Of a DNA stretch of 47,416 nucleotides, positions 1 to 47,416 are shown in pieces; position 1 is the first letter of the stretch, and every line of letters starts with the position of its first letter. A model generated the notes under the pieces. The model searched no databases. It was not told the DNA's origin and was given only the letters and a program-made list of their open reading frames with translations. Both the position numbers and the translations under genes were made by a program. Source of the stretch: a virus (lineage: Duplodnaviria; Caudoviricetes); the IMG/VR virus record IMGVR_UViG_3300027533_000037, positions 1 to 47,416 of that record. The stretch is one strand, 5' to 3'.

Positions 1-165
1 AGGGTGTGGCGCGGCGACCGGGTGGGATTATGAAGACAGAAGAAGAGTCGTCGTTCAGAGATCAGGCATCAATCGGACTCGCCCAGCTATGAAAGTTGGT
101 TGGAGCGCGACTTTTCTCCTTATGGTTACCCTGCCAGAATACATCTCGCCGCAAGTATTAAATGA
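1..165. repeat. Terminal direct repeat / circular assembly overlap (copy 1)
   Basis: Matches 47252-47416 except at positions 127, 130 and 131. Confidence 0.95.
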
Positions 166-262
166 GGTTATTGCCACCGCTGGTAGAATAGGTGGTCTCG
201 GCGACTTCCGGCCGACTTACGGAAGGTTCGCCGTTGTCTCCTATCGGGTGTGCGAGGGATAG
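2..262 (+). CDS. C-terminal part of Cas7/RAMP-like (Vipr-like) protein; continues from 46809 across the junction
   Basis: Frame 2 reads GCGAATGWDYEDRRRVVVQRSGINRTRPAMKVGWSATFLLMVTLPEYISPQVLNEVIATAGRIGGLGDFRPTYGRFAVVSYRVCEG, stop TAG 260-262. The C-terminal glycine-rich loop GGLGDFRPTYGRF is RAMP-like. Confidence 0.85.
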   Translation, partial: GCGAATGWDYEDRRRVVVQRSGINRTRPAMKVGWSATFLLMVTLPEYISPQVLNEVIATAGRIGGLGDFRPTYGRFAVVSYRVCEG

Positions 263-586
263 GTCCGGCAGGGAGCGGCTTGGGATGGCAGGGCTCGGTT
301 AGCTATGGCCGGGGGTGGCATGGTCCGGCATGGTACGGGGCAGCAATGCCCGGCATGGACGGGTGAGGTGTGGAGCGGCTGGCCGCGGCGCGGTCTGTCT
401 CGGTACGGCTCGGGGGGGCCTGGTGTGGTGCGGCAGGGTTAGGTCGGATTCGGCACGCCGTGGGGCGGCTCGGAATGGCTAGGTGTGGTCAGGCGGGCGT
501 CGGCATGGCGCGGCCTGCGGGGGTGCGGAGCGGCATGGCAGGCTCTGGGTAGGCATGGTGTGGCGCGGCTGGCCCTGGTATGGTGC
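262..586 (+). repeat. Array of 65 GGYNN-type pentamers in unbroken 5-nt register (putative guide RNA array)
   Basis: GGTCC GGCAG GGAGC GGCTT GGGAT GGCAG GGCTC GGTTA ... GGTAT GGTGC. By hand count 63/65 start with G, 54/65 with GG and 43/65 with GGY; the last two bases vary freely. Confidence 0.93.
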
Positions 587-615
587 CGGTTCAGGACGGC
601 AATGCCAGCAAGAAG

Positions 616-786
616 ATGAGCCGACCTCTTGAGTGGCCAGAAATGCCGTGGCTGACGCCTGACATTGGCTATATAGGTGAGTGGCGCGGCATCCTGTTCG
701 TGGATGAGGTGGTTGTTGGCAACCGGCGCCAGCGTCGGCGCCGGGACAAAGCTGAATCGGAGGTAGACGATGGCACGATCCCATGA
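616..786 (+). CDS. Small hypothetical protein (56 aa)
   Basis: ATG 616, MSRPLEWPEMPWLTPDIGYIGEWRGILFVDE...; weak RBS; overlaps the start of the next gene. Confidence 0.4.
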   Translation: MSRPLEWPEMPWLTPDIGYIGEWRGILFVDEVVVGNRRQRRRRDKAESEVDDGTIP

Positions 787-1357
787 CGACAGGCCTACCG
801 ACGCACCGAAGCCCGCCGACAGGTCAAATCCGCCCGGCGCCGGAGCCCCCTCGCCGGGCGCCCTGACCGCCGACGAGCAGGGCCGGCTACGGGAACTCCG
901 CGCCAAGCCCGAGGCCGAGCGCTCGCCGGACGAGAAGACGGAACTGGCCGGGCTGGAAGCCCGCAACGTGCCGCAGCCCGCCGCCGTCACGGACCGCATC
1001 CAGCGCGACCTCTCGCCTGACCGCGCCCCGGCGCCGCTGGTCGACATGCCGAAGGATGACGCCAACCGGCTGCGCGATCTCAGAGTCGCCAACGAACTGG
1101 GCCGCCTTTCGGATGGCGAGCGGGCCGAGATGGGCACCCTGTCGATGGCTGAATCGGAGGCCGCCGGCCACGTCATGTCGCCCGACTCGCCAGAGACCGA
1201 GGATGACGGCTCCTGGGTCATCGACGAACTCCTCGGCATGATCGAGGCGATGGTCGACCTGACCCCGGCCTATCGCAATATCGGCCTCCGGGTGCGGACG
1301 ATGCGCGCCCGCCTGGAGGAGGCGCGCCATCCGGTGCCGGTACCCGATAAGGGCTGA
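770..1357 (+). CDS. Hypothetical protein (195 aa)
   Basis: GGAGG RBS; high-GC3 codon usage; directly upstream of portal. Confidence 0.75.
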   Translation: MARSHDDRPTDAPKPADRSNPPGAGAPSPGALTADEQGRLRELRAKPEAERSPDEKTELAGLEARNVPQPAAVTDRIQRDLSPDRAPAPLVDMPKDDANRLRDLRVANELGRLSDGERAEMGTLSMAESEAAGHVMSPDSPETEDDGSWVIDELLGMIEAMVDLTPAYRNIGLRVRTMRARLEEARHPVPVPDKG

Positions 1358-1382: not shown

Positions 1383-3605
1383 ATGTCTGACCTGCCCGCG
1401 ATCGCGCTTCCGCCGGAACGCGAGACCGTCGATCGCGACCAGGATTTGCTGGGGCGGCAGCCGCGCGGCGGCGCCTCCCCGAAGTCGGGCATCCGCGGCC
1501 ATCTCGACGATCTGTTCGATGACATCAAACGCGGCTTCGACGACCAGGAAGACCGCTCCGACGACATCCAGGATTATTGGGACTGCTATAACTGCGAGGC
1601 GAACCAACACCGTTATTACAACGGTATCGCCAACATCTATTTCCCGATCATCCACGACGCCATCGAGGCGATCGTCACGAGGTATGTTAACCAATTGTTC
1701 CCGCAGGGCGGCCGCTATGTGCAGGCGATCAGCGCCGACGGCGACACCGAATCCGCGCTCGTCGCGATCCTCGACCACTATATCCGCCAGGGTAGCGTCA
1801 AGACCCAGGTCGCCGAACCCCTGGTCAGGAACGGCCAGGTCGAGGGGCAATACAGCCTCTACGTGGACTGGGCCGAGGTCGAGCGGCAGATTGTTTCACG
1901 TGAAACACACGGCCCCATTGACCCAGAAACCGGCCAGGAAATGCCGGGCGAGGAAATCGAGGACATCACCGAGGAGACCGTCATCGAGGGCTACCCGGTC
2001 CTTGAGGTGTTGCACGACCCCGATGTTCTGATATTGCCGCCGACGGCCGACACGGTGCAGGAGGCGCTGTCCTGCGGCGGCTCCGTCACGATCGTCCGCC
2101 GCTGGTCCAAGGACAAGATCCGGGCGATGGCGCGGGCCGGCAACATCCGCGAGGACGAGGCGGATAAGCTCGTCGCCGAGATGGGCCGGGTCGGCGAGGA
2201 GGAGCGCAACACCGAGCGCCACATCCTGGAACAGGTCGGCATCCGCGACGAGGGGCGGATGGCGCAGGTCTGGGAAGTCTGGGCGATGCTGCCGCTGGGC
2301 AAATCCGGGCGCTACGCCGAGGATGGCCGCAAACGCCTCTGCCGCATCTTCTTCGGCCCGAAGCGCTGCCAATTGGGCGCCAAGCGCAACCCCTACTGGA
2401 ACGACCGCTGCCCGCTGATTTCGCGCCCGGTCAAGAAGATGGCCGGCGCCGCCAAGGGGCCGAGCCCGATCAAGTACGTGGAATCGTTGCAATATGAAGC
2501 AAACGATGCGGTTAACGAAGGTGCCGACGCGGCGACACTCAGTGCGGCGCCCATCGTTGCCCGTGACCCCGAGAAGGTGGACGGTCCGCTTGTTTACAAC
2601 GTCGGGGCCGTCTGGGATGCGCCTCCCGGTTCGGTTGAGCTTCTCACATTTCCCGACCTTACCCCTCGCGCGGCAACTCGCGTCCAAATGGCCCTACAGG
2701 CGATATTCCAGAACCTGAATGTCAACCCGTCGATGCTGCCGTCTTCCTCCTCGCGCACGACGCAGCCGACCCAGGCGCAGATCGCCCAGGAGCAGGCGGT
2801 CGACCTGCTGACGACGGCGATGGGTGTCTCGACCCTGGAGGACGTGTTGACCGAGGCGGTCGCCTGGATCGTCGACCTCGACTACCAGTTCCGCGACCGC
2901 AATATCCTGATCCGGATGTTCGGCGAGGAGGGCCGTAAGGCCGAGATGCAGTCGGTCAGCCCCCTCCAGAACCGCAACGGCCTGACCTTTGTCTGGCGCG
3001 GCGGCGAGCAGGTACGGCAGAACGCGATGATGGCGCAGCAGGGCACGGCGCTCCTCAATGTGCTGCAGAATCCCGCATTGGAGCAGCGCCTCAAGGCCGA
3101 GGGCATCCAGTTGCGCCTCTCCAAGCTGGTCAGCCAGATGGTCGCCAACGCCTTTGGCCCGGAACTGGGCGAAGCCATCCTGTTCGACCAGCGCAACAGC
3201 CTCTCCTTTCCGCAGGACCGCGAGAACGAGATGCTGGTGGCCGGGTTCGAGGTGCCGGTGCACCCGCTCGACAATGACGAGGAGCACATCCCGGAGGTCA
3301 TGCGGGCGATCCAGGAAACGGGTGACCCGCACGGCACATTGCGGGTCCACCTCCAGGCCCACCTCGCCCAGCGCGCCGCCAAGGTGCAGGCCCAGATGAT
3401 GCAGCAGATGGCGATGCAGCAGCAGGGCCAACCGCCGCGCCCCGGCCTGCCAGGACCCGCCGGCCCAGGCCGCCCGCCCGGCGCACAACCTCCGGCCCCC
3501 GGCTCGCAGCCGGCCGGCCCGCAGCAGATGCGGGGGCCTCCAGGTATGGTGCATCCCGATATGATGGCTAGGGCCGGGGGAATCTCGATGCCCAGGAAGA
3601 TGTGA
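1383..3605 (+). CDS. Portal protein
   Basis: 740 aa between terminase and scaffold/capsid. Typical podoviral portal features (N-terminal YFPIIHDAIEA, RCPLISRP, Q/P-rich C-terminal tail, DNDEEHI motif). Confidence 0.85.
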   Translation: MSDLPAIALPPERETVDRDQDLLGRQPRGGASPKSGIRGHLDDLFDDIKRGFDDQEDRSDDIQDYWDCYNCEANQHRYYNGIANIYFPIIHDAIEAIVTRYVNQLFPQGGRYVQAISADGDTESALVAILDHYIRQGSVKTQVAEPLVRNGQVEGQYSLYVDWAEVERQIVSRETHGPIDPETGQEMPGEEIEDITEETVIEGYPVLEVLHDPDVLILPPTADTVQEALSCGGSVTIVRRWSKDKIRAMARAGNIREDEADKLVAEMGRVGEEERNTERHILEQVGIRDEGRMAQVWEVWAMLPLGKSGRYAEDGRKRLCRIFFGPKRCQLGAKRNPYWNDRCPLISRPVKKMAGAAKGPSPIKYVESLQYEANDAVNEGADAATLSAAPIVARDPEKVDGPLVYNVGAVWDAPPGSVELLTFPDLTPRAATRVQMALQAIFQNLNVNPSMLPSSSSRTTQPTQAQIAQEQAVDLLTTAMGVSTLEDVLTEAVAWIVDLDYQFRDRNILIRMFGEEGRKAEMQSVSPLQNRNGLTFVWRGGEQVRQNAMMAQQGTALLNVLQNPALEQRLKAEGIQLRLSKLVSQMVANAFGPELGEAILFDQRNSLSFPQDRENEMLVAGFEVPVHPLDNDEEHIPEVMRAIQETGDPHGTLRVHLQAHLAQRAAKVQAQMMQQMAMQQQGQPPRPGLPGPAGPGRPPGAQPPAPGSQPAGPQQMRGPPGMVHPDMMARAGGISMPRKM

Positions 3606-4243
3606 TGTTGGAGTGGCGACCGATCCCCGGCTATGAGGGGTTATATGAGGTCTCGGCGGAGGGGGATGTCCGCTCTCTGCCGCGCCTGATCCCGTGCGCC
3701 AGCGGCGAATCCCGACGTTTCGCGGGACGGGGGCTCACGCCAGACCCCAACAAGTGGGGGTATTTACGTGTGACGCTACACCGAAGTGGGCGCCAAAAGC
3801 GATGCGGCGTGCACGAACTGGTGGCGCTGGCCTTTATTGGCCCAAAGCCAGTTGGCGCGTGGGTGCTCCATCGAGACGACGACAAGCGCAAAAATATCCC
3901 CGGTAATCTCTACTATGGAACCCGGGCCGAAAATGCCAAGGATGCGATAGCGAATGGCCGCCAGGTTCGCGGCAGCCGCGTATCGAACAGCAAACTTACC
4001 GAGGCCGATATTCCGTCGATCTTGGCGATGCGATCCCGCGGGGAAACCTACAAAGGGATCGGCATCGCTTTCGGCGTGGCGACATCAACCATATTCCAGA
4101 TTTGCGTGGGGAAATGGTGGAAGGAGGCTGCGCTGGCCATACACCCCGACCAACTATCGAGAGCTGGGGGCATCGGATTCCCGCGCAAGATGCGGCTTGA
4201 CAAAACCACATCTAGCGGTCTTACCCTGATCGTGCGCGCGTAA
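3602..4243 (+). CDS. NUMOD4-HNH homing endonuclease
   Basis: EWRPIPGYEGLYEVSAEGDVRS (NUMOD4), VHELVALAFIGPKP..VLHRDDDKRKNIPGNLYYGTRAENAKD (HNH), C-terminal HTH. Confidence 0.9.
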   Translation: MMLEWRPIPGYEGLYEVSAEGDVRSLPRLIPCASGESRRFAGRGLTPDPNKWGYLRVTLHRSGRQKRCGVHELVALAFIGPKPVGAWVLHRDDDKRKNIPGNLYYGTRAENAKDAIANGRQVRGSRVSNSKLTEADIPSILAMRSRGETYKGIGIAFGVATSTIFQICVGKWWKEAALAIHPDQLSRAGGIGFPRKMRLDKTTSSGLTLIVRA

Positions 4244-4303: not shown

Positions 4304-5110
4304 ATGTCGGACGATCCGAAACTTCCCCTGGTAGACGGGGGCGAGGAGCTTGACCTTGGCGAAATCGAAGAAGTCGAAGGGCAAGATGCCGGGCTTTATG
4401 GCGATGAAGCCGTCGAAGAAGGGGATGCCCCCGATGAAGGGCCCGATGGCGAAGAAGGCGCCGAAGAAGATGTAGACCCGAGCCCCAGGCGCCGGCCGGG
4501 CCGCTCCGAGCGGTTGCGCGAAAAGAACGCGCAGCTTGAGCGGGAACTGGCGGAGGCGCGGGGGTTCAGGCAGGCGGCGGAGCAGCTTCAGCGGTTCCAG
4601 CCCCAGCAGCAGCAGGTTAACGCCGAGGCGGAGCGGGTAGCAAGGTGGGAGAACGAAAATCTCCCGATGATGTCGGCGCAGGAGATCAGCGCCTACTACT
4701 ACAACAAGGGTATCCAGCAGACGCAGCAGCAGATGCTGATGCAGCAGCTGCAAACCGAGGACCGGATTGACAAGCGCGACTTCGACCAGCAGGCCCGAAC
4801 CAGCCGCGTCCACTCCCAGTACCGGGAAGAGGTCGAGCGCGAGCTTAATGCCGAGCGGCAGCGGGGAAACCTGCGCGCCTCGCGCGACGATATCCTGCAT
4901 CGCCTCGTCGGCCGTGACGCGGTTCAGCGTGCCGCGCGGGCAGCTCCTGCGCAGCGCCGCAGTGCGCAGCGCCGTGTTGAGGGCCAGCAGACGCGCCCGA
5001 CCAATGGGCGAGGGGACGGAGCCAGCGGCGGTCGCCGCCCGGCCCCCGGATCACCCGAGCACGACGAGATGCTCGTCCAGCAGTATTTCCAGGGTGGCGG
5101 ACGGTTGTAG
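4304..5110 (+). CDS. Putative scaffolding protein
   Basis: Acidic N-terminus, coiled-coil Q/E/R-rich body, immediately upstream of the capsid gene, GGGAG RBS. Confidence 0.7.
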   Translation: MSDDPKLPLVDGGEELDLGEIEEVEGQDAGLYGDEAVEEGDAPDEGPDGEEGAEEDVDPSPRRRPGRSERLREKNAQLERELAEARGFRQAAEQLQRFQPQQQQVNAEAERVARWENENLPMMSAQEISAYYYNKGIQQTQQQMLMQQLQTEDRIDKRDFDQQARTSRVHSQYREEVERELNAERQRGNLRASRDDILHRLVGRDAVQRAARAAPAQRRSAQRRVEGQQTRPTNGRGDGASGGRRPAPGSPEHDEMLVQQYFQGGGRL

Positions 5111-5156
5111 GGGGACGGTCCAGACCCTCCCCCTCGGACAGGGAGGGTTTTAAGCG

Positions 5157-7514: not shown

Positions 7515-7547
7515 ATAATGCCCCTCCTGTTTCGGAGGGGGCATTAT
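7515..7547 (+). promoter_or_regulatory. Hairpin sequestering the RBS and start codon of the HNH gene
   Basis: ATAATGCCCCTCC (7515-7527) pairs with GGAGGGGGCATTAT (7534-7547) with one bulge; TATAAT at 7514-7519. Confidence 0.65.
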
Positions 7548-8142
7548 GGAGTGGAGACTAGTGGTGGGGTATGAGGCGTTCTACGAAGTGAGCGATCAGG
7601 GCGATGTGAGGTCCTTGCCTCGTCGCGTTGGAGCCAAGGATGGTGGGACGCGCGTTCGGAAGCCTCATGTGTTGAGGCCGATCGTCTGGAAAAACCAGCA
7701 CTGGAGGGTGAGGCTCACTGACGCCTCGGGGGTCGCGAAGGAGAGAAAAGTTCACCACCTTGTGGCTGCGGCGTTTTTGGGGCCACGTCCGGCCGGTATG
7801 GGTGCGCTACACAAGGACGATGACAAGTCGCGGAATTGTCTGGCCAACCTTTACTACGGGACGCCGGCCCAAAATACGCGGGACAAGATGGCGAACGGCA
7901 AGCACAGATACGGCATCTCTCTTGGAGAGAAGCACGGGCAAAGCCGCCTAACCGAGAAGGATATTCCTGAAATTCTAAGGATGCGCGAGGGTGGAATGAC
8001 ATTCAGAGCGTTGGCCGCGGCTTTCGATATGTCGGAAATGGCGATACAGAGTGTCGTGCGCGGACGCAGTTGGGGGTGGCTCTCGGGGGTCAAGTTCGAG
8101 CCCAGGCGCGGTCGCTATGTGACGGTTAAGAGGAGCGCCTGA
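7546..8142 (+). CDS. NUMOD4-HNH homing endonuclease
   Basis: MEWRLVVGYEAFYEVSDQGDVRS; VHHLVAAAFLGPRP..ALHKDDDKSRNCLANLYYGTPAQNTRD; paralog of 3602-4243. Confidence 0.9.
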   Translation: MEWRLVVGYEAFYEVSDQGDVRSLPRRVGAKDGGTRVRKPHVLRPIVWKNQHWRVRLTDASGVAKERKVHHLVAAAFLGPRPAGMGALHKDDDKSRNCLANLYYGTPAQNTRDKMANGKHRYGISLGEKHGQSRLTEKDIPEILRMREGGMTFRALAAAFDMSEMAIQSVVRGRSWGWLSGVKFEPRRGRYVTVKRSA

Positions 8143-37860: not shown

Positions 37861-38253
37861 AGGCCGGCCAGGGCGGCGGACAGGCGCCCGCTCATACAAC
37901 GCTACAGATCAGGTCGAACACCTCGCGCACCGCCTGTTCCCAGGCCCTAGCCCAGTCCTGCGGGTCGCGGGCGCGGGCGAGGTCGGTGCAGGTCACGGTG
38001 TCGCGGCCAATGAGGCGTAGGAGCCCTGCCGTGGCCGCCAGGCCGCAAGAAACCCCGCCGCATACCTGAGCCCCCTCGGGTGCGTCTATGCCCCACAGGC
38101 GCACGCGCACGCCGCCTACGTCGATTGTATCGCCGTCGATCACCGTGGCCTCGCCCCGGATCGTGTTCCGCGACAATGCATCGGGCACGGCGAGCGCGGC
38201 GCATGCCCCGGCCAGCACCAGGCCGGCCAGGGCGGCGGATAGGCGCCCGCTCA
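37861..38253. repeat. 34-bp direct repeat flanking the nuclease-like gene
   Basis: AGGCCGGCCAGGGCGGCGGA(C/T)AGGCGCCCGCTCA at 37861-37894 and 38220-38253. Confidence 0.85.
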
Positions 38254-42578: not shown

Positions 42579-42797
42579 ATGAGAGATCGTCGCTTTGTAT
42601 TGCTGCGCGACGTGGTGATCCCGGCCGGCACCGTGCTGGAGCGGGCCGCCAATGAGCGCGGCGGGACCTCGGCCGTCGAGTGCGTCGTGGCACTTGGGTC
42701 GGACAGCCACGGATATTTCGTGATCGCCGCCATCGACGGCGATGCGGCGAAGGACGCCCTGGGATGGGTCGAGGAATGCAACCCAGCAGCCGCCTGA
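42579..42797 (+). CDS. Hypothetical protein (72 aa)
   Basis: AGGAG RBS. Confidence 0.6.
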   Translation: MRDRRFVLLRDVVIPAGTVLERAANERGGTSAVECVVALGSDSHGYFVIAAIDGDAAKDALGWVEECNPAAA

Positions 42798-43021
42798 TCG
42801 AGGCCGAGCGCCGGGGCGAGCCGCGCCCCGGGCCAGACCGGCTGGCGGATGTGACCCTCACGGTGCGCGAGTGGTCCGTCGTGCTGGGCTCGCTCTCGGC
42901 AACGGCGCAGCACATGGTGCGGGCGAAGGCGGCCGGGCGACTGCTCGAGCAGATCGGCGACCAGGGCATCGTCGACGTTACCAACGTGCTGGGGGCCATC
43001 CGGCGTCAGGCGCGGCTGTGA
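42776..43021 (+). CDS. Hypothetical protein (81 aa)
   Basis: GAGG RBS; stop overlaps the MTase start. Confidence 0.5.
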   Translation: MQPSSRLIEAERRGEPRPGPDRLADVTLTVREWSVVLGSLSATAQHMVRAKAAGRLLEQIGDQGIVDVTNVLGAIRRQARL

Positions 43022-44490
43022 AGGGCGGCACGCTGTTCTCCGGCATCGGCGCGCCGGAATGCGCGATGCCGCGGGTCGACTGGCGCTGGTGCGCCGAGAC
43101 CGACCAGTTCGCCTCCGCCGTCATGGCGGCGCGGCATCCCGAGATCCCGAACCTGGGGGACGTGAATGAAATCGCCGCCGATGCAGTTGAGCCTGTTGAC
43201 CTCATCGTCTTCGGATCGCCCTGCCAGTCGTTCAGCGTCGCCGGCAAGCGCCTCGGCCCGGATGACCCGCGCGGCAACATGGCCCTCGTCGGCCTTCGCG
43301 TGGTTGGCCGCATCCGGCCCCGTTGGGTGGTTTGGGAGAATGTCCCCGGCGTCCTGTCGTCTGACGGAGGACGGGATTTTGGCGCCTTCCTCGGGCTCCT
43401 GGGGGAACTCGGGTATGGGTTCGCCTACCGGGTTCTTGACGCTCAGCACTTCGGAGTTCCACAGCGGCGCCGCCGCGTCTTCGTTGTCGGATATCTTGGA
43501 GACTGGCGACCTGCCGCGGCGGTACTTTTTGAGCCAGAAAGCCTGCGCGGGGATTCTGCGCCGCGCCGAGAAGCGGGGCAAGGAGTTGCCCGGCCAATTG
43601 CAAGCTGCGCTCCGGGCGGCAGCGGCTACCGATTTGACGCCGACACCGCCGACAACCTGATCGCCCGTTGCGTCGCAACGGGCACCAACGGCCAGCGCTA
43701 CGATTACGAGACCGAGACGATGGTGCTGGCGCATTCACTCCGCGCCGATGGCTTCGACGCCAGCAAGGACGTGACCGGGCGCGGCACGCCGCTGACACTC
43801 GCGATCCGGGGGCGCGGCGACAGCCATGATCTGGAATGGCGGGATGACGGGGTCGCAAACGCCGTGCTGACGCCCAACGGCGGGCGCGGCGGCATCGGTG
43901 TCGGGGCTATCGCGGCTTACGGCATCCGCCGCGATGCGGGACGAGACGGCGTGGCGAAGACGCCTTCGGACGACGGCTATGGCCGCGTCTCCCTGCGCGA
44001 CCCCGGCTTCAACGTCTACGAGGAGACGGCCCCGACGCTCGACAGCGCGCCGCACGCCGTTGCGTTCCACGAGAACCAGCGAGCCGAGACGACGCTCAGC
44101 GACACGGCTGGCGCTCTGAAGGTCGGTGGCGGCAAGCCGGGGCAGGGCTATCCCGCCGTGTTTGAGAGCCGCTTCGCGCGCAACGGTCGCGGCGCCCCCG
44201 ACGAGATCGTACCGCCACTCAAGGCGCAGTCGGGGCAGAGCGGGAAGGGCGATGCTGCGCCGCTGCTGCAATCGGCAATGTCCGTCCGCCGCCTCACTCC
44301 ACGCGAGTGCGAGCGCCTGCAAGGACTGCCGGACGACTACACGCTGATCCCCTATCGCGGGAAGCCAGCCGCTGACGGGCCGAGATACCGGGCGATCGGA
44401 AACTCGATGGCCGTACCCGTGATCGGCTGGATCGGCGAGCGGATCGCGGCCGTCGACGAAATCACGGCGTTCCGCGAGGCGGCGGAGTGA
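43018..44490 (+). CDS. DNA (cytosine-5) methyltransferase
   Basis: Motif I LFSGIG, IV GSPCQSFS, VI WENVPG, VIII QRRRRVF, IX RRLTPRECERLQG, X AIGNS. Confidence 0.95.
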   Translation: MKGGTLFSGIGAPECAMPRVDWRWCAETDQFASAVMAARHPEIPNLGDVNEIAADAVEPVDLIVFGSPCQSFSVAGKRLGPDDPRGNMALVGLRVVGRIRPRWVVWENVPGVLSSDGGRDFGAFLGLLGELGYGFAYRVLDAQHFGVPQRRRRVFVVGYLGDWRPAAAVLFEPESLRGDSAPRREAGQGVARPIASCAPGGSGYRFDADTADNLIARCVATGTNGQRYDYETETMVLAHSLRADGFDASKDVTGRGTPLTLAIRGRGDSHDLEWRDDGVANAVLTPNGGRGGIGVGAIAAYGIRRDAGRDGVAKTPSDDGYGRVSLRDPGFNVYEETAPTLDSAPHAVAFHENQRAETTLSDTAGALKVGGGKPGQGYPAVFESRFARNGRGAPDEIVPPLKAQSGQSGKGDAAPLLQSAMSVRRLTPRECERLQGLPDDYTLIPYRGKPAADGPRYRAIGNSMAVPVIGWIGERIAAVDEITAFREAAE

Positions 44491-46583
44491 GCGCGGCCCC
44501 CGACCTCGGCGCGGTCAAGGCCGAAATCCTCCAGATCATCTCCGCCGACAAGTGGAAGAGTCACCAGATTCTCTTCCGCCACCGCCACCAGTACAGCGGC
44601 GTCCCCACCGTGCCGGCCGAGTTCCACGAGGCGCTGGTTTCCGACTTTTGGAGTAGCGACCCCTATTCGATCATCCTCGCCTTCCGCGGCAGCGCCAAAT
44701 CGACGCTGGGCGAGGAGGACATCGTGCTGGCGGCGTGCCTGATGGCCTGGCGCAACATCGTCGTGATCTCCTCGAACGAGACCCGCGCGGCCGAGCGGCT
44801 GGCGGCGGTCGCCTACGAACTGACCACCAACCCCTTTATCGTCGACCTGTTCGGCGATTTGAAGGGCGACGCCTGGACCCAAACCAAGATCGTCACGACT
44901 ACGGGCGTCTGCGTGCAGGCGATCGGCCGCGACCAGGACATCCGGGGCATCAAGCACCTCGACCACCGGCCCGATTTCATCTTCGTCGATGACGTGGAGA
45001 GCCCGGAATCGGTGCAGACCCCGGACCAGCGCCGGAAGACGCTGAGATGGTTCCTCTCCGAATTGCTGCCGGCCTGCGCCCCGGAGCGCCGGGTCCGCAT
45101 CCGCGCGACGCCGATGGACGCCGAATCCCTGCCGATCAAGTTGCAGAACGAGTGGGGCTGGCCGACCAAGACGTTCCCGGTCGAGTACCTGGACGAGGAC
45201 GGTAAGCGCAAGGCGTCATGGCCCGAGGTGTGGCCATTGCCGAAGATCGACCGCGAGCGCCAGGGCTACGAGCGGGTCGGGGAATTGGCGGTCTGGGAGC
45301 GCGAGATGCTGTGCCGCGCCTTTTCCGAGAGCGACCGGATTTTCACCCGCGAGATGATAAAGGTGGCGCCCCGGGAGAAGACCTGGCAGGCCTGCTACGC
45401 GATGATCGACCCGGCCCGCTCCACGGGGCCGCAATCCGCCACCACCGGCTGGGCCGTGTGGTCCTGGATCAACAACCGCCTCGTGGTGTGGGCCGCCGAT
45501 GCGAGCTTCCTTCTCCCCGACGAAATCGTTGCCCTTGCCTTCGACATCCACGAACGGTTCGATCCGGTGTGGGTTGGCGTGGAGCTTGACGGCCTTGAAC
45601 AATTTCTATTGCAGCCGATGCGGCACGAAATGGCTCGAAGGGGGACTTATCTGCCCCTTAGAGGCGTCCGCGCTCCCCGCGGAAAGCTCGACTTCATCCG
45701 AGGGCTCCAGCCGTTCTTCTCGGCCCGCGAGGTCGAGTTCGCGCAAGCCCTACCAGTTCTCGCCGAACAGCTTCTCAACTTCCCGACGGGCAAGATAGAC
45801 GCGCCGAACGCGCTGGCCTACGCGCTGACAATGCGGCCGGGGCTGCCGGTCTACGACGGCTTCGGCGCCGAGCACATCGTCCCCGACCTCGCGCACGATC
45901 CGACCCGGCCCTTGTTCCTCATTGCCAACGCTACCGGCGCGATGACCGCGGCGGCGCTGGTGCAGCATTTCGACGGCCGGCTCCTCTTGTTGGCCGACTG
46001 GGTGCGCGAGGGCAATCCGGGCGAATTGGCGGGGCCTATATATAATGAGGCGGTGCTGTCGGCCGACGCGCCGCGCGACGCGCTGTTGCGCTCCCGGCCG
46101 CGCTCGTGGGACGCGATGCTGAAGGCGCCGGTGCCCGACCGCCTGACGAGCCGCAACCAGCCGCCCATCTGGATCGTGCCGCCGCACCACGAGGACAAGT
46201 ACACCAATGTCGGGCTGCTTCAGTCGATCCGGGCTATTCCGGCTGATCTGCGCCTCGGTGGCGCGGAGGCGGCCGGACAGGTTCATCTGCAAGATATGCT
46301 GGGCCGGATCTCCCGAGGCATGCCCGCTGTCGCGGCTTCCCCCCGAGCCCGATGGCTATGTCGTGCGTGCGCGGGAGGTTATTCTCGGGCCCTGGTGCGA
46401 GGCCGGCTCCAGGACGAACCGGAGCAGGGGCCGTACTCTCTCCTGATGGCGGCGGTCGAGAGCTTCCTGGGCCTCCAGCGCAAATCGTTTGCCTCGGACG
46501 CCGAAAGCGAGGATACGGATCAACCGTGGGGCGAGGATCGGTTCGGAAATAGATTCCGAACAGCAATGCCAGCTAGACGGTAA
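44487..46583 (+). CDS. terL: Terminase large subunit
   Basis: Walker A AFRGSAKST, Walker B FIFVDDVE, ATP coupling motif, nuclease MIDPA...KIDAPNALAYAL. Confidence 0.9.
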   Translation: MSAAPDLGAVKAEILQIISADKWKSHQILFRHRHQYSGVPTVPAEFHEALVSDFWSSDPYSIILAFRGSAKSTLGEEDIVLAACLMAWRNIVVISSNETRAAERLAAVAYELTTNPFIVDLFGDLKGDAWTQTKIVTTTGVCVQAIGRDQDIRGIKHLDHRPDFIFVDDVESPESVQTPDQRRKTLRWFLSELLPACAPERRVRIRATPMDAESLPIKLQNEWGWPTKTFPVEYLDEDGKRKASWPEVWPLPKIDRERQGYERVGELAVWEREMLCRAFSESDRIFTREMIKVAPREKTWQACYAMIDPARSTGPQSATTGWAVWSWINNRLVVWAADASFLLPDEIVALAFDIHERFDPVWVGVELDGLEQFLLQPMRHEMARRGTYLPLRGVRAPRGKLDFIRGLQPFFSAREVEFAQALPVLAEQLLNFPTGKIDAPNALAYALTMRPGLPVYDGFGAEHIVPDLAHDPTRPLFLIANATGAMTAAALVQHFDGRLLLLADWVREGNPGELAGPIYNEAVLSADAPRDALLRSRPRSWDAMLKAPVPDRLTSRNQPPIWIVPPHHEDKYTNVGLLQSIRAIPADLRLGGAEAAGQVHLQDMLGRISRGMPAVAASPRARWLCRACAGGYSRALVRGRLQDEPEQGPYSLLMAAVESFLGLQRKSFASDAESEDTDQPWGEDRFGNRFRTAMPARR

Positions 46584-46602
46584 TGACCGGGTGCGCTATT
46601 AT
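46574..46602 (+). promoter_or_regulatory. Sigma70-like promoter for the pentamer/Cas7-like module
   Basis: TAGACG (46574-46579)-N17-TATTAT (46597-46602); predicted start falls at the first pentamers. Confidence 0.55.
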
Positions 46603-46611
46603 GATGGCTGG

Positions 46612-46686
46612 GCCATGGCGCGCTGTGGTTTGGCTAGGGCGGCTTTGGTCCGCTTAGGCCTGGATCGGTTCGGCTAGGTAAGGTTT
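46612..46686 (+). repeat. Upstream tract of 15 GGYNN-type pentamers
   Basis: GCCAT GGCGC GCTGT GGTTT GGCTA GGGCG GCTTT GGTCC GCTTA GGCCT GGATC GGTTC GGCTA GGTAA GGTTT. Confidence 0.85.
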
Positions 46687-46799
46687 TCGCGGCCATCACC
46701 GCGAGAGAGCGCAACAACCAATCTTGAGCTTCCCGCTCCGGTTGTTGCTTTACGCAACCCCTGTGCATAGCGCTCCGGGCGTGATGGGACCGGAGCGGG
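46687..46799 (+). ncRNA. Structured RNA element (three hairpins, possible kissing loop)
   Basis: Stems 46687-92/46699-704, 46711-19/46740-48 and 46771-78/46790-97; CCATCAC (46693-99) complements GTGATGG (46781-87). Confidence 0.55.
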
Positions 46800-46808
46800 G
46801 AGACTGTT

Positions 46809-47416
46809 ATGGCGAGAAGTAAGGCTACTGCAGAAGTCGTCAGAATTGGCGGCGATGTTCCAACTAATGGATCTGACGAGGCTATTGCCTTTTTGGAACC
46901 GTTCACGGCTGAGGTCAGAATTGAGGGTTCGGCCGATATCCTGTTCCACCGCTGGAACCCGGAGGCGGTGGACGAAAAGGCGAAAGCGGCCAAGGGGAGC
47001 GCTGCAAAAAAGAGCGATAATATCGAAAGCTATGTTTATCGGAACGACGCGGGAGAGATTTGTTTGCCTGGAGAATATCTGCGCGGGGCTATAGTCGGGG
47101 CGGCGAAATTTCGCCAAGATCCGCGCTCTCCAAGAAAATCTGCGATGGACCTGTTCAAGGCTGGGGTGGTGTCATTGACCCCTTTGGCTCCGATGTATTC
47201 TGCGGCAAGCCGGGGCTCGGCAAGCGGCGGCAAGGCAAGCCACGGTGAGGCAGGGTGTGGCGCGGCGACCGGGTGGGATTATGAAGACAGAAGAAGAGTC
47301 GTCGTTCAGAGATCAGGCATCAATCGGACTCGCCCAGCTATGAAAGTTGGTTGGAGCGCGACTTTTCTCCTTATGGTCACGTTGCCAGAATACATCTCGC
47401 CGCAAGTATTAAATGA
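46809..47416 (+). CDS. N-terminal part of Cas7/RAMP-like (Vipr-like) protein, 234 aa in total across the junction
   Basis: GGGGAG RBS, ATG 46809, open to the window end: MARSKATAEVV..AEVRIEGSADILFHRW..ICLPGEYLRGAIVGAAKF..WDYEDRRRVVVQRSGINRTRP.. Lower GC than flanking genes. Confidence 0.85.
   Translation, partial: MARSKATAEVVRIGGDVPTNGSDEAIAFLEPFTAEVRIEGSADILFHRWNPEAVDEKAKAAKGSAAKKSDNIESYVYRNDAGEICLPGEYLRGAIVGAAKFRQDPRSPRKSAMDLFKAGVVSLTPLAPMYSAASRGSASGGKASHGEAGCGAATGWDYEDRRRVVVQRSGINRTRPAMKVGWSATFLLMVTLPEYISPQVLN
47204..47268 (+). repeat. 13 GGYNN-type pentamers inside the Cas7-like reading frame
   Basis: GGCAA GCCGG GGCTC GGCAA GCGGC GGCAA GGCAA GCCAC GGTGA GGCAG GGTGT GGCGC GGCGA (10/13 GGY). 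Confidence 0.8.
47252..47416. repeat. Terminal direct repeat / circular assembly overlap (copy 2)
   Basis: Matches 1-165 with 3 mismatches. Confidence 0.95.

Follow-up and report, generated by a model that had tools for sequence, protein, structure and literature searches.

Organization of the locus

The analysed stretch of DNA, referred to below as the window, is a phage contig of 47,416 nucleotides with a GC content of 65%. The ends of the contig overlap by 165 nt (162/165 identical), both copies translate alike, and the three synonymous differences between them (window 127–131 vs 47378–47382) suggest mixed strains in the assembly. Joining the ends, as proposed in an earlier note on this DNA, gives an ORF of 234 aa (46809–47416 plus 1–262); another contig (L008/L093) carries this ORF without a break, so joining the ends produced no artefact. 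This ORF, the vipr gene, and tracts of pentamers (a GGY triplet and an NN pair) are the only content of a cassette flanked by two copies of the terL end. The following features were annotated:

44487–46583, plus strand: terminase large subunit gene (terL), PHROG 38, E=1.8e-50, with its 3' end bordering the cassette on the left
46533–46565, plus strand: terL codons EDRFGNRFRTA, the own copy of the site targeted by the upstream guide, with mismatches (16/22)
46574–46602, plus strand: predicted sigma70-like promoter (1 site found vs 0.4 expected by chance)
46617–46686, plus strand: upstream vrRNA tract, 14 units (11 GG), 19/20 on L096, 0/300 shuffles
46687–46802, plus strand: predicted tail hairpin plus structured leader; the leader overlaps the vipr ribosome-binding site, and in 5 aligned sequences the region persists although the guide differs
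46809–47416, plus strand: vipr gene, first 202 codons, continuing across the terminal repeat (joined ORF; profile match to Vipr)
46992–47018, plus strand: own mismatched version of the intragenic target, KGSAAKKSD (13/18 vs 18/18 in three rival genes)
47204–47268, plus strand: in-frame intragenic tract, 13 units, 10 GG, all 10 GGY, encoding a 22-residue loop and spelling rival vipr codons KGSKAKKTD
47252–47416, plus strand: terminal repeat, second copy (assembly overlap), 162/165 identical to 1–165
1–262, plus strand: 3' part of vipr with thumb and G-loop (joined ORF; profile alignment); 1–165 is the terminal repeat
262–336, plus strand: array block A, 15 units, wholly or partly replaced in sibling phages
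337–351, plus strand: in-register hairpin with a four-base loop (fold z=-2.45)
352–586, plus strand: array block B, 47 units; strain differences are mostly whole-unit deletions and third-base changes
587–619, plus strand: second copy of the terL 3' end, reading RFRTAMPARR-stop, the right border of the cassette (alignment)
770–1357, plus strand: 195-aa small gene between the array and the putative portal gene; its counterpart lies directly or closely after terL in cassette-free relatives
1383–3605: putative portal gene, labelled from position and size only

Of the earlier placement of the module between terL and portal, the terL side stands on the PHROG match, whereas the portal gene, with no Pfam or PHROG match, is named from position and size, and the 195-aa gene intervenes. 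The reported absence of cas genes and CRISPR repeats was upheld: no Cas family was found by Pfam in 29 window ORFs or by PADLOC with 4 Vipr sequences, and no CRISPR-like family is present among the 20 largest of the 52 direct-repeat families in the window. The cassette contains no nuclease gene; two NUMOD4-HNH endonuclease genes (window 3602–4243 and 7546–8142, Pfam) lie outside it, in the head-gene region, with no sign tying them to it. A gene for C-5 cytosine DNA methylase is located directly upstream of terL (window 42742–44490, Pfam), and a 34-nt direct repeat, 97% identical, is present in two copies 359 nt apart (window 37861–37894 and 38220–38253).

The Vipr protein and its homologs

The profile of the family, built from 141 sequences, matches PDB entry 36pp, 'SUSP1 Vipr protein', chain 36pp_D, over residues 5–190 with E=6.5e-16; in another profile search the same chain was matched at E=2e-9. 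No other PDB chain scored below E=0.28 with the 141-sequence profile. On this sequence-profile homology, on which the assignment of the fold also rests, the protein is identified as Vipr and the system as VIPR, in agreement with the earlier description of a stand-alone Cas7/RAMP-like gene of a VIPR-like system. No Pfam or PADLOC family was found for the protein, and its matches in the ESM Atlas are unnamed viral clusters only.

In the accessible part of the structural source, the GGY-binding residues named for SUSP1 Vipr include H17, E71, R138, W178, D177 and R179 (bioRxiv 10.64898/2026.04.26.720927). Compared with SUSP1 Vipr (36pp), as far as that source describes it, counterparts of H17, E71, K82, R138, D177 and R179 are kept in the window protein, W178 is replaced by F and C173 by G, K33 and R39 align to alanine, and 22 residues are inserted just before the thumb. 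Where the C173-equivalent residue is glycine, units have a higher share of purines at position 3 (0.17 vs 0.11–0.13, p=0.04), but this association was dropped, 6 of the 10 rows being near-copies.

Homologs numbered 5987 among 6428 candidates, and 306 cluster representatives were obtained. The earlier note had proposed looking for 5-nt GG periodicity in their flanks, and 68 of the 69 distinct homologous genes do have tracts, either internal or no more than 1.2 kb away, with a tract of at least 30 units at 41 of the 69 loci. No recurring neighbour gene family was found in more than 5 of 74 loci; hence no vap is evident and insertion sites vary. Acquisition genes were likewise not evident there. 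In a gapped pattern scan of viral contigs, three of ten matches (L085, L089, L091) were false and were left out. In the search for expression no RNA dataset containing the sequence was listed; two runs contained small shares, on contigs only, and are probably DNA, and the outcome speaks neither for nor against expression.

The genome of phage DSL-LC04 (L199, OR003939.1) encodes, at positions 2501–3118, a Vipr of 52% identity that is listed as a helix-turn-helix regulator and has tracts upstream. Only the last vipr codons were found in L186, at about 5060–5130 (G002), and no tracts were seen in the stretch inspected; this remnant, located behind a gene like that upstream of the vipr of L005, is likely a deleted cassette.

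Pentamer code and the downstream array

The downstream array comprises 65 in-phase pentamers (262–586), and the vipr stop codon (260–262) passes into it. Position 1 is G in 63 units, 54 units begin with GG and 43 with GGY. The 65 in-phase units after the stop thus stand as first described, whereas the triplet, described as fixed and GGY-like and followed by a free NN pair, is variable at its third base, a purine in 13/65. The best lag-5 GG score of a 100-nt segment is 15, against a maximum of 13 in 200 triplet shuffles of the window. The two further tracts, upstream of and inside the gene, were located as listed above. The earlier note had also proposed that gapped targets, such as a competing phage, are spelled by the NN pairs. 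Skipping one base gave matches in competing phages, and skipping 0 or 2 bases did not: two guides reach 19/20 with the one-base skip and at most 17/20 with the others, and no shuffle of 300 reaches this score.

Differences between strains in the array consist of block swaps, whole-unit deletions and substitutions. In block B, 10 of the 18 substitutions are at position 3 and 6 at the two NN positions; this predominance of third-base changes fits NN carrying information. The alignment of the hairpin between the blocks resembles the terL end, and it may be a degenerate third copy of it. No repeated tails were seen in the array. A VIPR variant has hammerhead ribozymes between its guides; for 10 loci, L008 with its intact copy among them, Rfam gave no match at the gathering score. 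Downstream of vipr in L010, a 61-unit tract, all GG-initial, is followed by another (39/39); very long arrays lacking tails are frequent in this clade.

The array holds most of the guide sequence at the locus, and no target for it was found in the searches run, which counts against the explanation preferred below. In 2.0 Mb of related loci no array window rose above background (best 17/20). A match of 21/24 in 0.87 Mb of sibling DNA falls in a low-complexity stretch of a protein with no homolog among the loci compared and is attributed to chance. Units 43–52 resemble what we take to be the nucleotidyltransferase motif of anti-phage cyclases; of 51 genome matches, 49 lie in long ORFs, mostly of Firmicutes, that contain a motif resembling that of nucleotidyltransferases, and 2 contain an in-frame stop, and since none clearly extended past the seed this reading was rejected. 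The resemblance of units 55–62 to a presumed excisionase-type helix-turn-helix was also rejected, none of the 8 viral matches being extended.

The tract inside the vipr gene

Read with the one-base skip, the first nine NN pairs of the intragenic tract correspond to bases 1 and 2 of each codon for KGSKAKKTD, which is the most frequent variant of a Vipr motif (50/116 homologs). Against 78 vipr rows, this guide scores 18/18 in 3 and 17/18 in 18; its own gene, with KGSAAKKSD at this site and a silent serine codon swap, scores 13/18, and 8 rows fall below it. The best 10-unit score in 2.5 Mb is 19/20, reached by 0/300 shuffles; the other skips give 15 (skip 0) and 17 (skip 2). Exact matches to the first 19 bases read were found at 6 sites of the whole viral collection, 4 of them in vipr genes (including L012 and L068) and 2 unrelated.

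Some properties of the tract count against the explanation preferred below. No structured tail is detectable after it (z=0.09), and its four 3' units match poorly (1, 1, 1 and 0 in the best targets). Since SUSP1 complexes engage DNA from the 3' end, according to the accessible part of the source (bioRxiv 10.64898/2026.04.26.720927), the lack of a tail and the weak 3' units make the intragenic guide doubtful. In four sibling records a variant of unit 3 lowers the best match to 18/20, with 15/20 for the own gene, which also speaks against that explanation. A shortened version of the tract, of 7 units, is present in L005.

Between two conserved anchors, 107 of the 128 homologs have 15 residues and 19 have 25–56; the window protein has 37, its extra 22 residues being encoded by the 13-unit tract just before the thumb. 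The vipr genes of L038, L039, L069, L073 and L080 contain a 21-residue non-pentamer version of the same loop, so the site tolerates inserts. The insert-bearing rows (22/112) correspond to 11 label changes on a quick tree, of which strongly supported branches force at least 2, and a single clade of inserts was rejected (p-AU 1e-8) for 46 rows, namely, 18 insert-bearing, 18 chosen near-neighbours and 10 random. Such a distribution may reflect repeated gain, lateral spread or repeated loss.

Other inserts at this loop also point to vipr genes. In L117/L120, an unrelated insert spells the vipr segment DYLDxRRV, at 18/20 vs 16/20 for the own gene. Scores below 18/20 were obtained for the insert of L112, which points to sequence on both sides of the insertion point (22/34), and for that of L113, which points to another vipr segment and scores its own gene equal to others at 16/20. 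Decoding from the peptide only, which missed the known positive and was tied once by control DNA, passed 7 of 18 inserts (Fisher 8e-4) and weakly suggests that inserts spell vipr.

Across 176 tracts, 22 of the 2898 ten-unit windows matched another vipr gene at 18/20 or better; among control windows at this threshold the counts were 0/1029 (shuffled), 1/1029 (skip 0) and 0/1029 (skip 2). Eleven tracts account for the 22 anti-vipr windows; 7 of these tracts are intragenic, and 5 of the 7 belong to the lineage of the window. In addition, a downstream guide of sibling L003 matches other vipr genes at 20/20 in their G-loop region, and the vipr gene of the window at 18/20.

The tract might instead be mainly a self-regulator, Vipr binding the GGY run of its own mRNA and blocking translation, or the partial self-match dampening its own gene, with the match to rivals a leftover. 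Partial-match self-repression is known from CRISPR mini-arrays, all vipr-targeting tracts keep a self-match of 14–18/20, the L113 insert fits its own gene and others equally, and the leader is predicted to fold over the ribosome-binding site. However, in 11 of the 11 tracts that score at least 18/20 the own gene is 2–5 lower, the own gene of the window departs from the commonest motif at the positions read, the silent serine swap included, and binding to mRNA alone needs no NN pairs that spell vipr; self-regulation as the main role is accordingly judged unlikely. A fossil, that is, a once-active anti-vipr guide decaying in a tolerant loop and kept only in frame while the intergenic guides are active, would account for the poor 3' units, the missing tail, the 7-unit version in L005 and the lack of signal from 11/18 peptide-decoded inserts, but it is quite improbable, given that units 1–9 still match perfectly, 10/13 units are still GGY, and the vipr segments spelled at this loop vary from insert to insert, which is not expected of a single accident.

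The upstream guide and the terL insertion site

In antisense, the terL 3' end is spelled by units 1–11 of the upstream tract, and the base that is skipped coincides with the wobble position. The cassette is absent after terL in ten relatives, which represent empty sites. The guide scores 21/22 in two of them (L096 and L106), 18–20/22 in five more and 14/22 in three distant ones, against 16/22 for the own allele, which departs from the relatives by codon swaps and conservative substitutions; the position of the three distant relatives below the own allele counts against the preferred explanation. The exact 11-unit pattern has 0 matches in the viral collection, so the best known target stays 21/22. 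Siblings L003 and L004 contain different upstream guides, which also match the terL 3' region; scores of 17/20 on the window allele, from the guide of L003, and of 19/20 on L096 were obtained.

The second copy of the terL end, downstream of the array, looks closer to the bases of the relatives. Insertion would thus have brought a recoded terL end and displaced the original end downstream. The -35 box of the predicted promoter lies within the last terL codons, that is, in the recoded end, and both predicted boxes are kept in L094 with a different spacer.

The predicted structured 3' tail after the 14-unit upstream guide is kept in the 5 aligned sequences. Two-sided changes were found at 9 of the 32 predicted leader pairs (4 sequences), and the leader has no Rfam match. 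Its part 46728–46802 is predicted to pair over the vipr ribosome-binding site, with a core motif in 11 of the 84 loci checked, and is possibly a translational switch.

First guides and adjacent genes across loci

The first guide of a locus was compared with its own 300-nt upstream flank, a test prompted by the window locus, the guide of which is one of the positives. A match at p<0.05 was found in 9 of 41 distinct loci (Fisher 6e-8), vs 2 and 3 loci with skips 0 and 2; a significant match is absent for 32 of the 41 first guides, which counts against the preferred explanation. In seven inspected loci the matches are in the codon register of the upstream gene, and in five of these they lie in its 3' part. 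When every tract was compared with the two flanks of its own locus, almost no signal was obtained (58/349 vs 88/698 at 14/20 or more), so the positive result is limited to the narrower first-guide test. In L069 (3588–4733), the first guide scores 15/20 on the 3' part of the gene preceding the cassette, presumably integrase-like, judging by its motif label.

Two loci were tested prospectively. For L042, the cassette-free L201 scores 19/20 vs 16/20 for the own allele, with only 480 nt downstream visible; for L032, with the portal gene, L216 and L223 score 19/20 vs 17/20 for the own allele, which the other 19 of 21 portal homologs do not beat. These comparisons of alleles suggest that first guides often aim at the cassette-free allele of the adjacent gene, as held in both tests. 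Copying of guides from nearby DNA by an acquisition process, with the neighbour matches marking origin and the own allele drifting away from self-silencing in the absence of any drive, is in keeping with the tendency of guides to match neighbours (terL end, vipr, vipr 3' end) and with the absence of acquisition genes, but the cassette-free alleles outscore the own allele in the window and in both prospective tests and the duplicated terL end points to replacement of a gene end on insertion, which leaves little room for copying as the whole account, although local acquisition and drive can both hold.

Relation to known systems

The VIPR class is published (bioRxiv 10.64898/2026.04.26.720920), so the window system is not a new system. 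According to the VIPR papers, one Vipr subunit sits on each pentamer, polymerising on the guide, and the filament binds double-stranded DNA and represses transcription; stand-alone vipr genes and variable array layouts are allowed (bioRxiv 10.64898/2026.04.26.720920). Described Vipr proteins have an RRM core, a thumb and a G-loop, a vrRNA of 9–16 units carries a conserved structured 3' tail, and an accessory vap gene is typical, though not universal. Because vap genes are listed there for types II–VII, the window system would fit type I by elimination. With the described systems it shares a phage-encoded small RAMP protein, GGY/NN pentamers with the one-base-skip code, targets that lie in competing phages and include other VIPR systems, and a gene preceded by a guide and followed by an array. 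Unlike them, it has no evident vap gene, 65 uninterrupted units instead of 9–16 per vrRNA, no repeated array tails, one guide located within the reading frame of vipr and another directed at the gene of its own insertion.

Guides against rival vipr, mostly wobble-aligned, as well as a lower self-match of vrRNA-targeting guides, are reported in the available portion of the text on SUSP1-family solo vrRNAs (bioRxiv 10.64898/2026.10.15.759431). As described there, those vrRNAs are intergenic in phages that have lost vipr, whereas the window guide is inside an intact vipr; the terms intragenic, embedded and homing are absent from that text. Likewise, no intragenic or insertion-site guides are described in the accessible VIPR literature text, including 10.64898/2026.10.21.760802, although figures, data files S1–S4 and supplementary tables may show such loci. 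VIPR, anti-vipr guides and self-avoidance are therefore already in print. Relative to the published text, a guide inside the vipr reading frame and a guide against the own insertion gene, both recognised from sequence comparison, were not found. The targets (rival vipr and the terL allele of the insertion site) and the family-wide recurrence of the intragenic tract go beyond the first observation of this locus.

With T-even free-standing homing endonucleases and marker exclusion, as outlined in the part of the source available (PMC2988022), the cassette shares its intergenic position, recognition of the neighbouring-gene allele of relatives with the own allele spared (here by sequence only), and a promoter, predicted here, in the 3' end of the upstream gene. 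Those enzymes are DNA-cutting proteins triggering gene conversion, whereas the cassette is RNA-programmed and nuclease-free, and its biased inheritance is inferred. With the Cas7/RAMP backbone of class 1 CRISPR it shares, per the VIPR papers, a RAMP-family subunit polymerising on the guide; unlike class 1 CRISPR, no other cas genes or CRISPR repeats were found and the pairing code is gapped.

Proposed function and significance

The locus is interpreted as a stand-alone VIPR cassette whose guides match alleles of rivals and mismatch its own, and which is likely a nuclease-free, homing-like element silencing close competitors; a probability of about 0.6 is assigned to this reading. A single transcript would run from the promoter at the terL end through the first guide and vipr into the array, Vipr would coat every GGY tract, including the one in its own reading frame, and nucleases would trim the rest. 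During co-infection, the first guide would block terL and the downstream head genes of a cassette-free relative, and the intragenic guide would shut off rival vipr genes. The recoded targets each lie within about 200 nt of their guide, so escape by recombination would tend to carry the guide along, comparable to marker exclusion with free-standing homing endonucleases except that nothing is cut: rival recombinants would escape only by acquiring a recoded site tightly linked to the guide, and guide and cassette would spread together, likely at the expense of close competitors.

A broader reading is offered tentatively and is held to be somewhat less probable than its opposite. The VIPR clade to which the window belongs may represent an RNA-programmed, nuclease-free gene drive between phages, in which guides are acquired against the gene hosting or adjoining them, travel with the recoded target and spread by silencing alleles without the guide. 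The vipr mRNA would also be a guide precursor, and one DNA stretch would serve as both a protein loop and an anti-VIPR guide, coupling the level of Vipr to guide production.

The VIPR text (bioRxiv 10.64898/2026.04.26.720920) gives no account of locus mobility or of guide gain without Cas1/Cas2. The locus provides pairs of filled and empty sites, a duplicated gene end, a strain series with swapped guides and an adjacent-gene rule, which together make mobility and the origin of guides directly testable. If true, a guide within the reading frame of the effector, recurrent at one loop, would represent a novel form of dual coding, and the Vipr gene and its guide as one sequence would be relevant to very compact programmable repressors.
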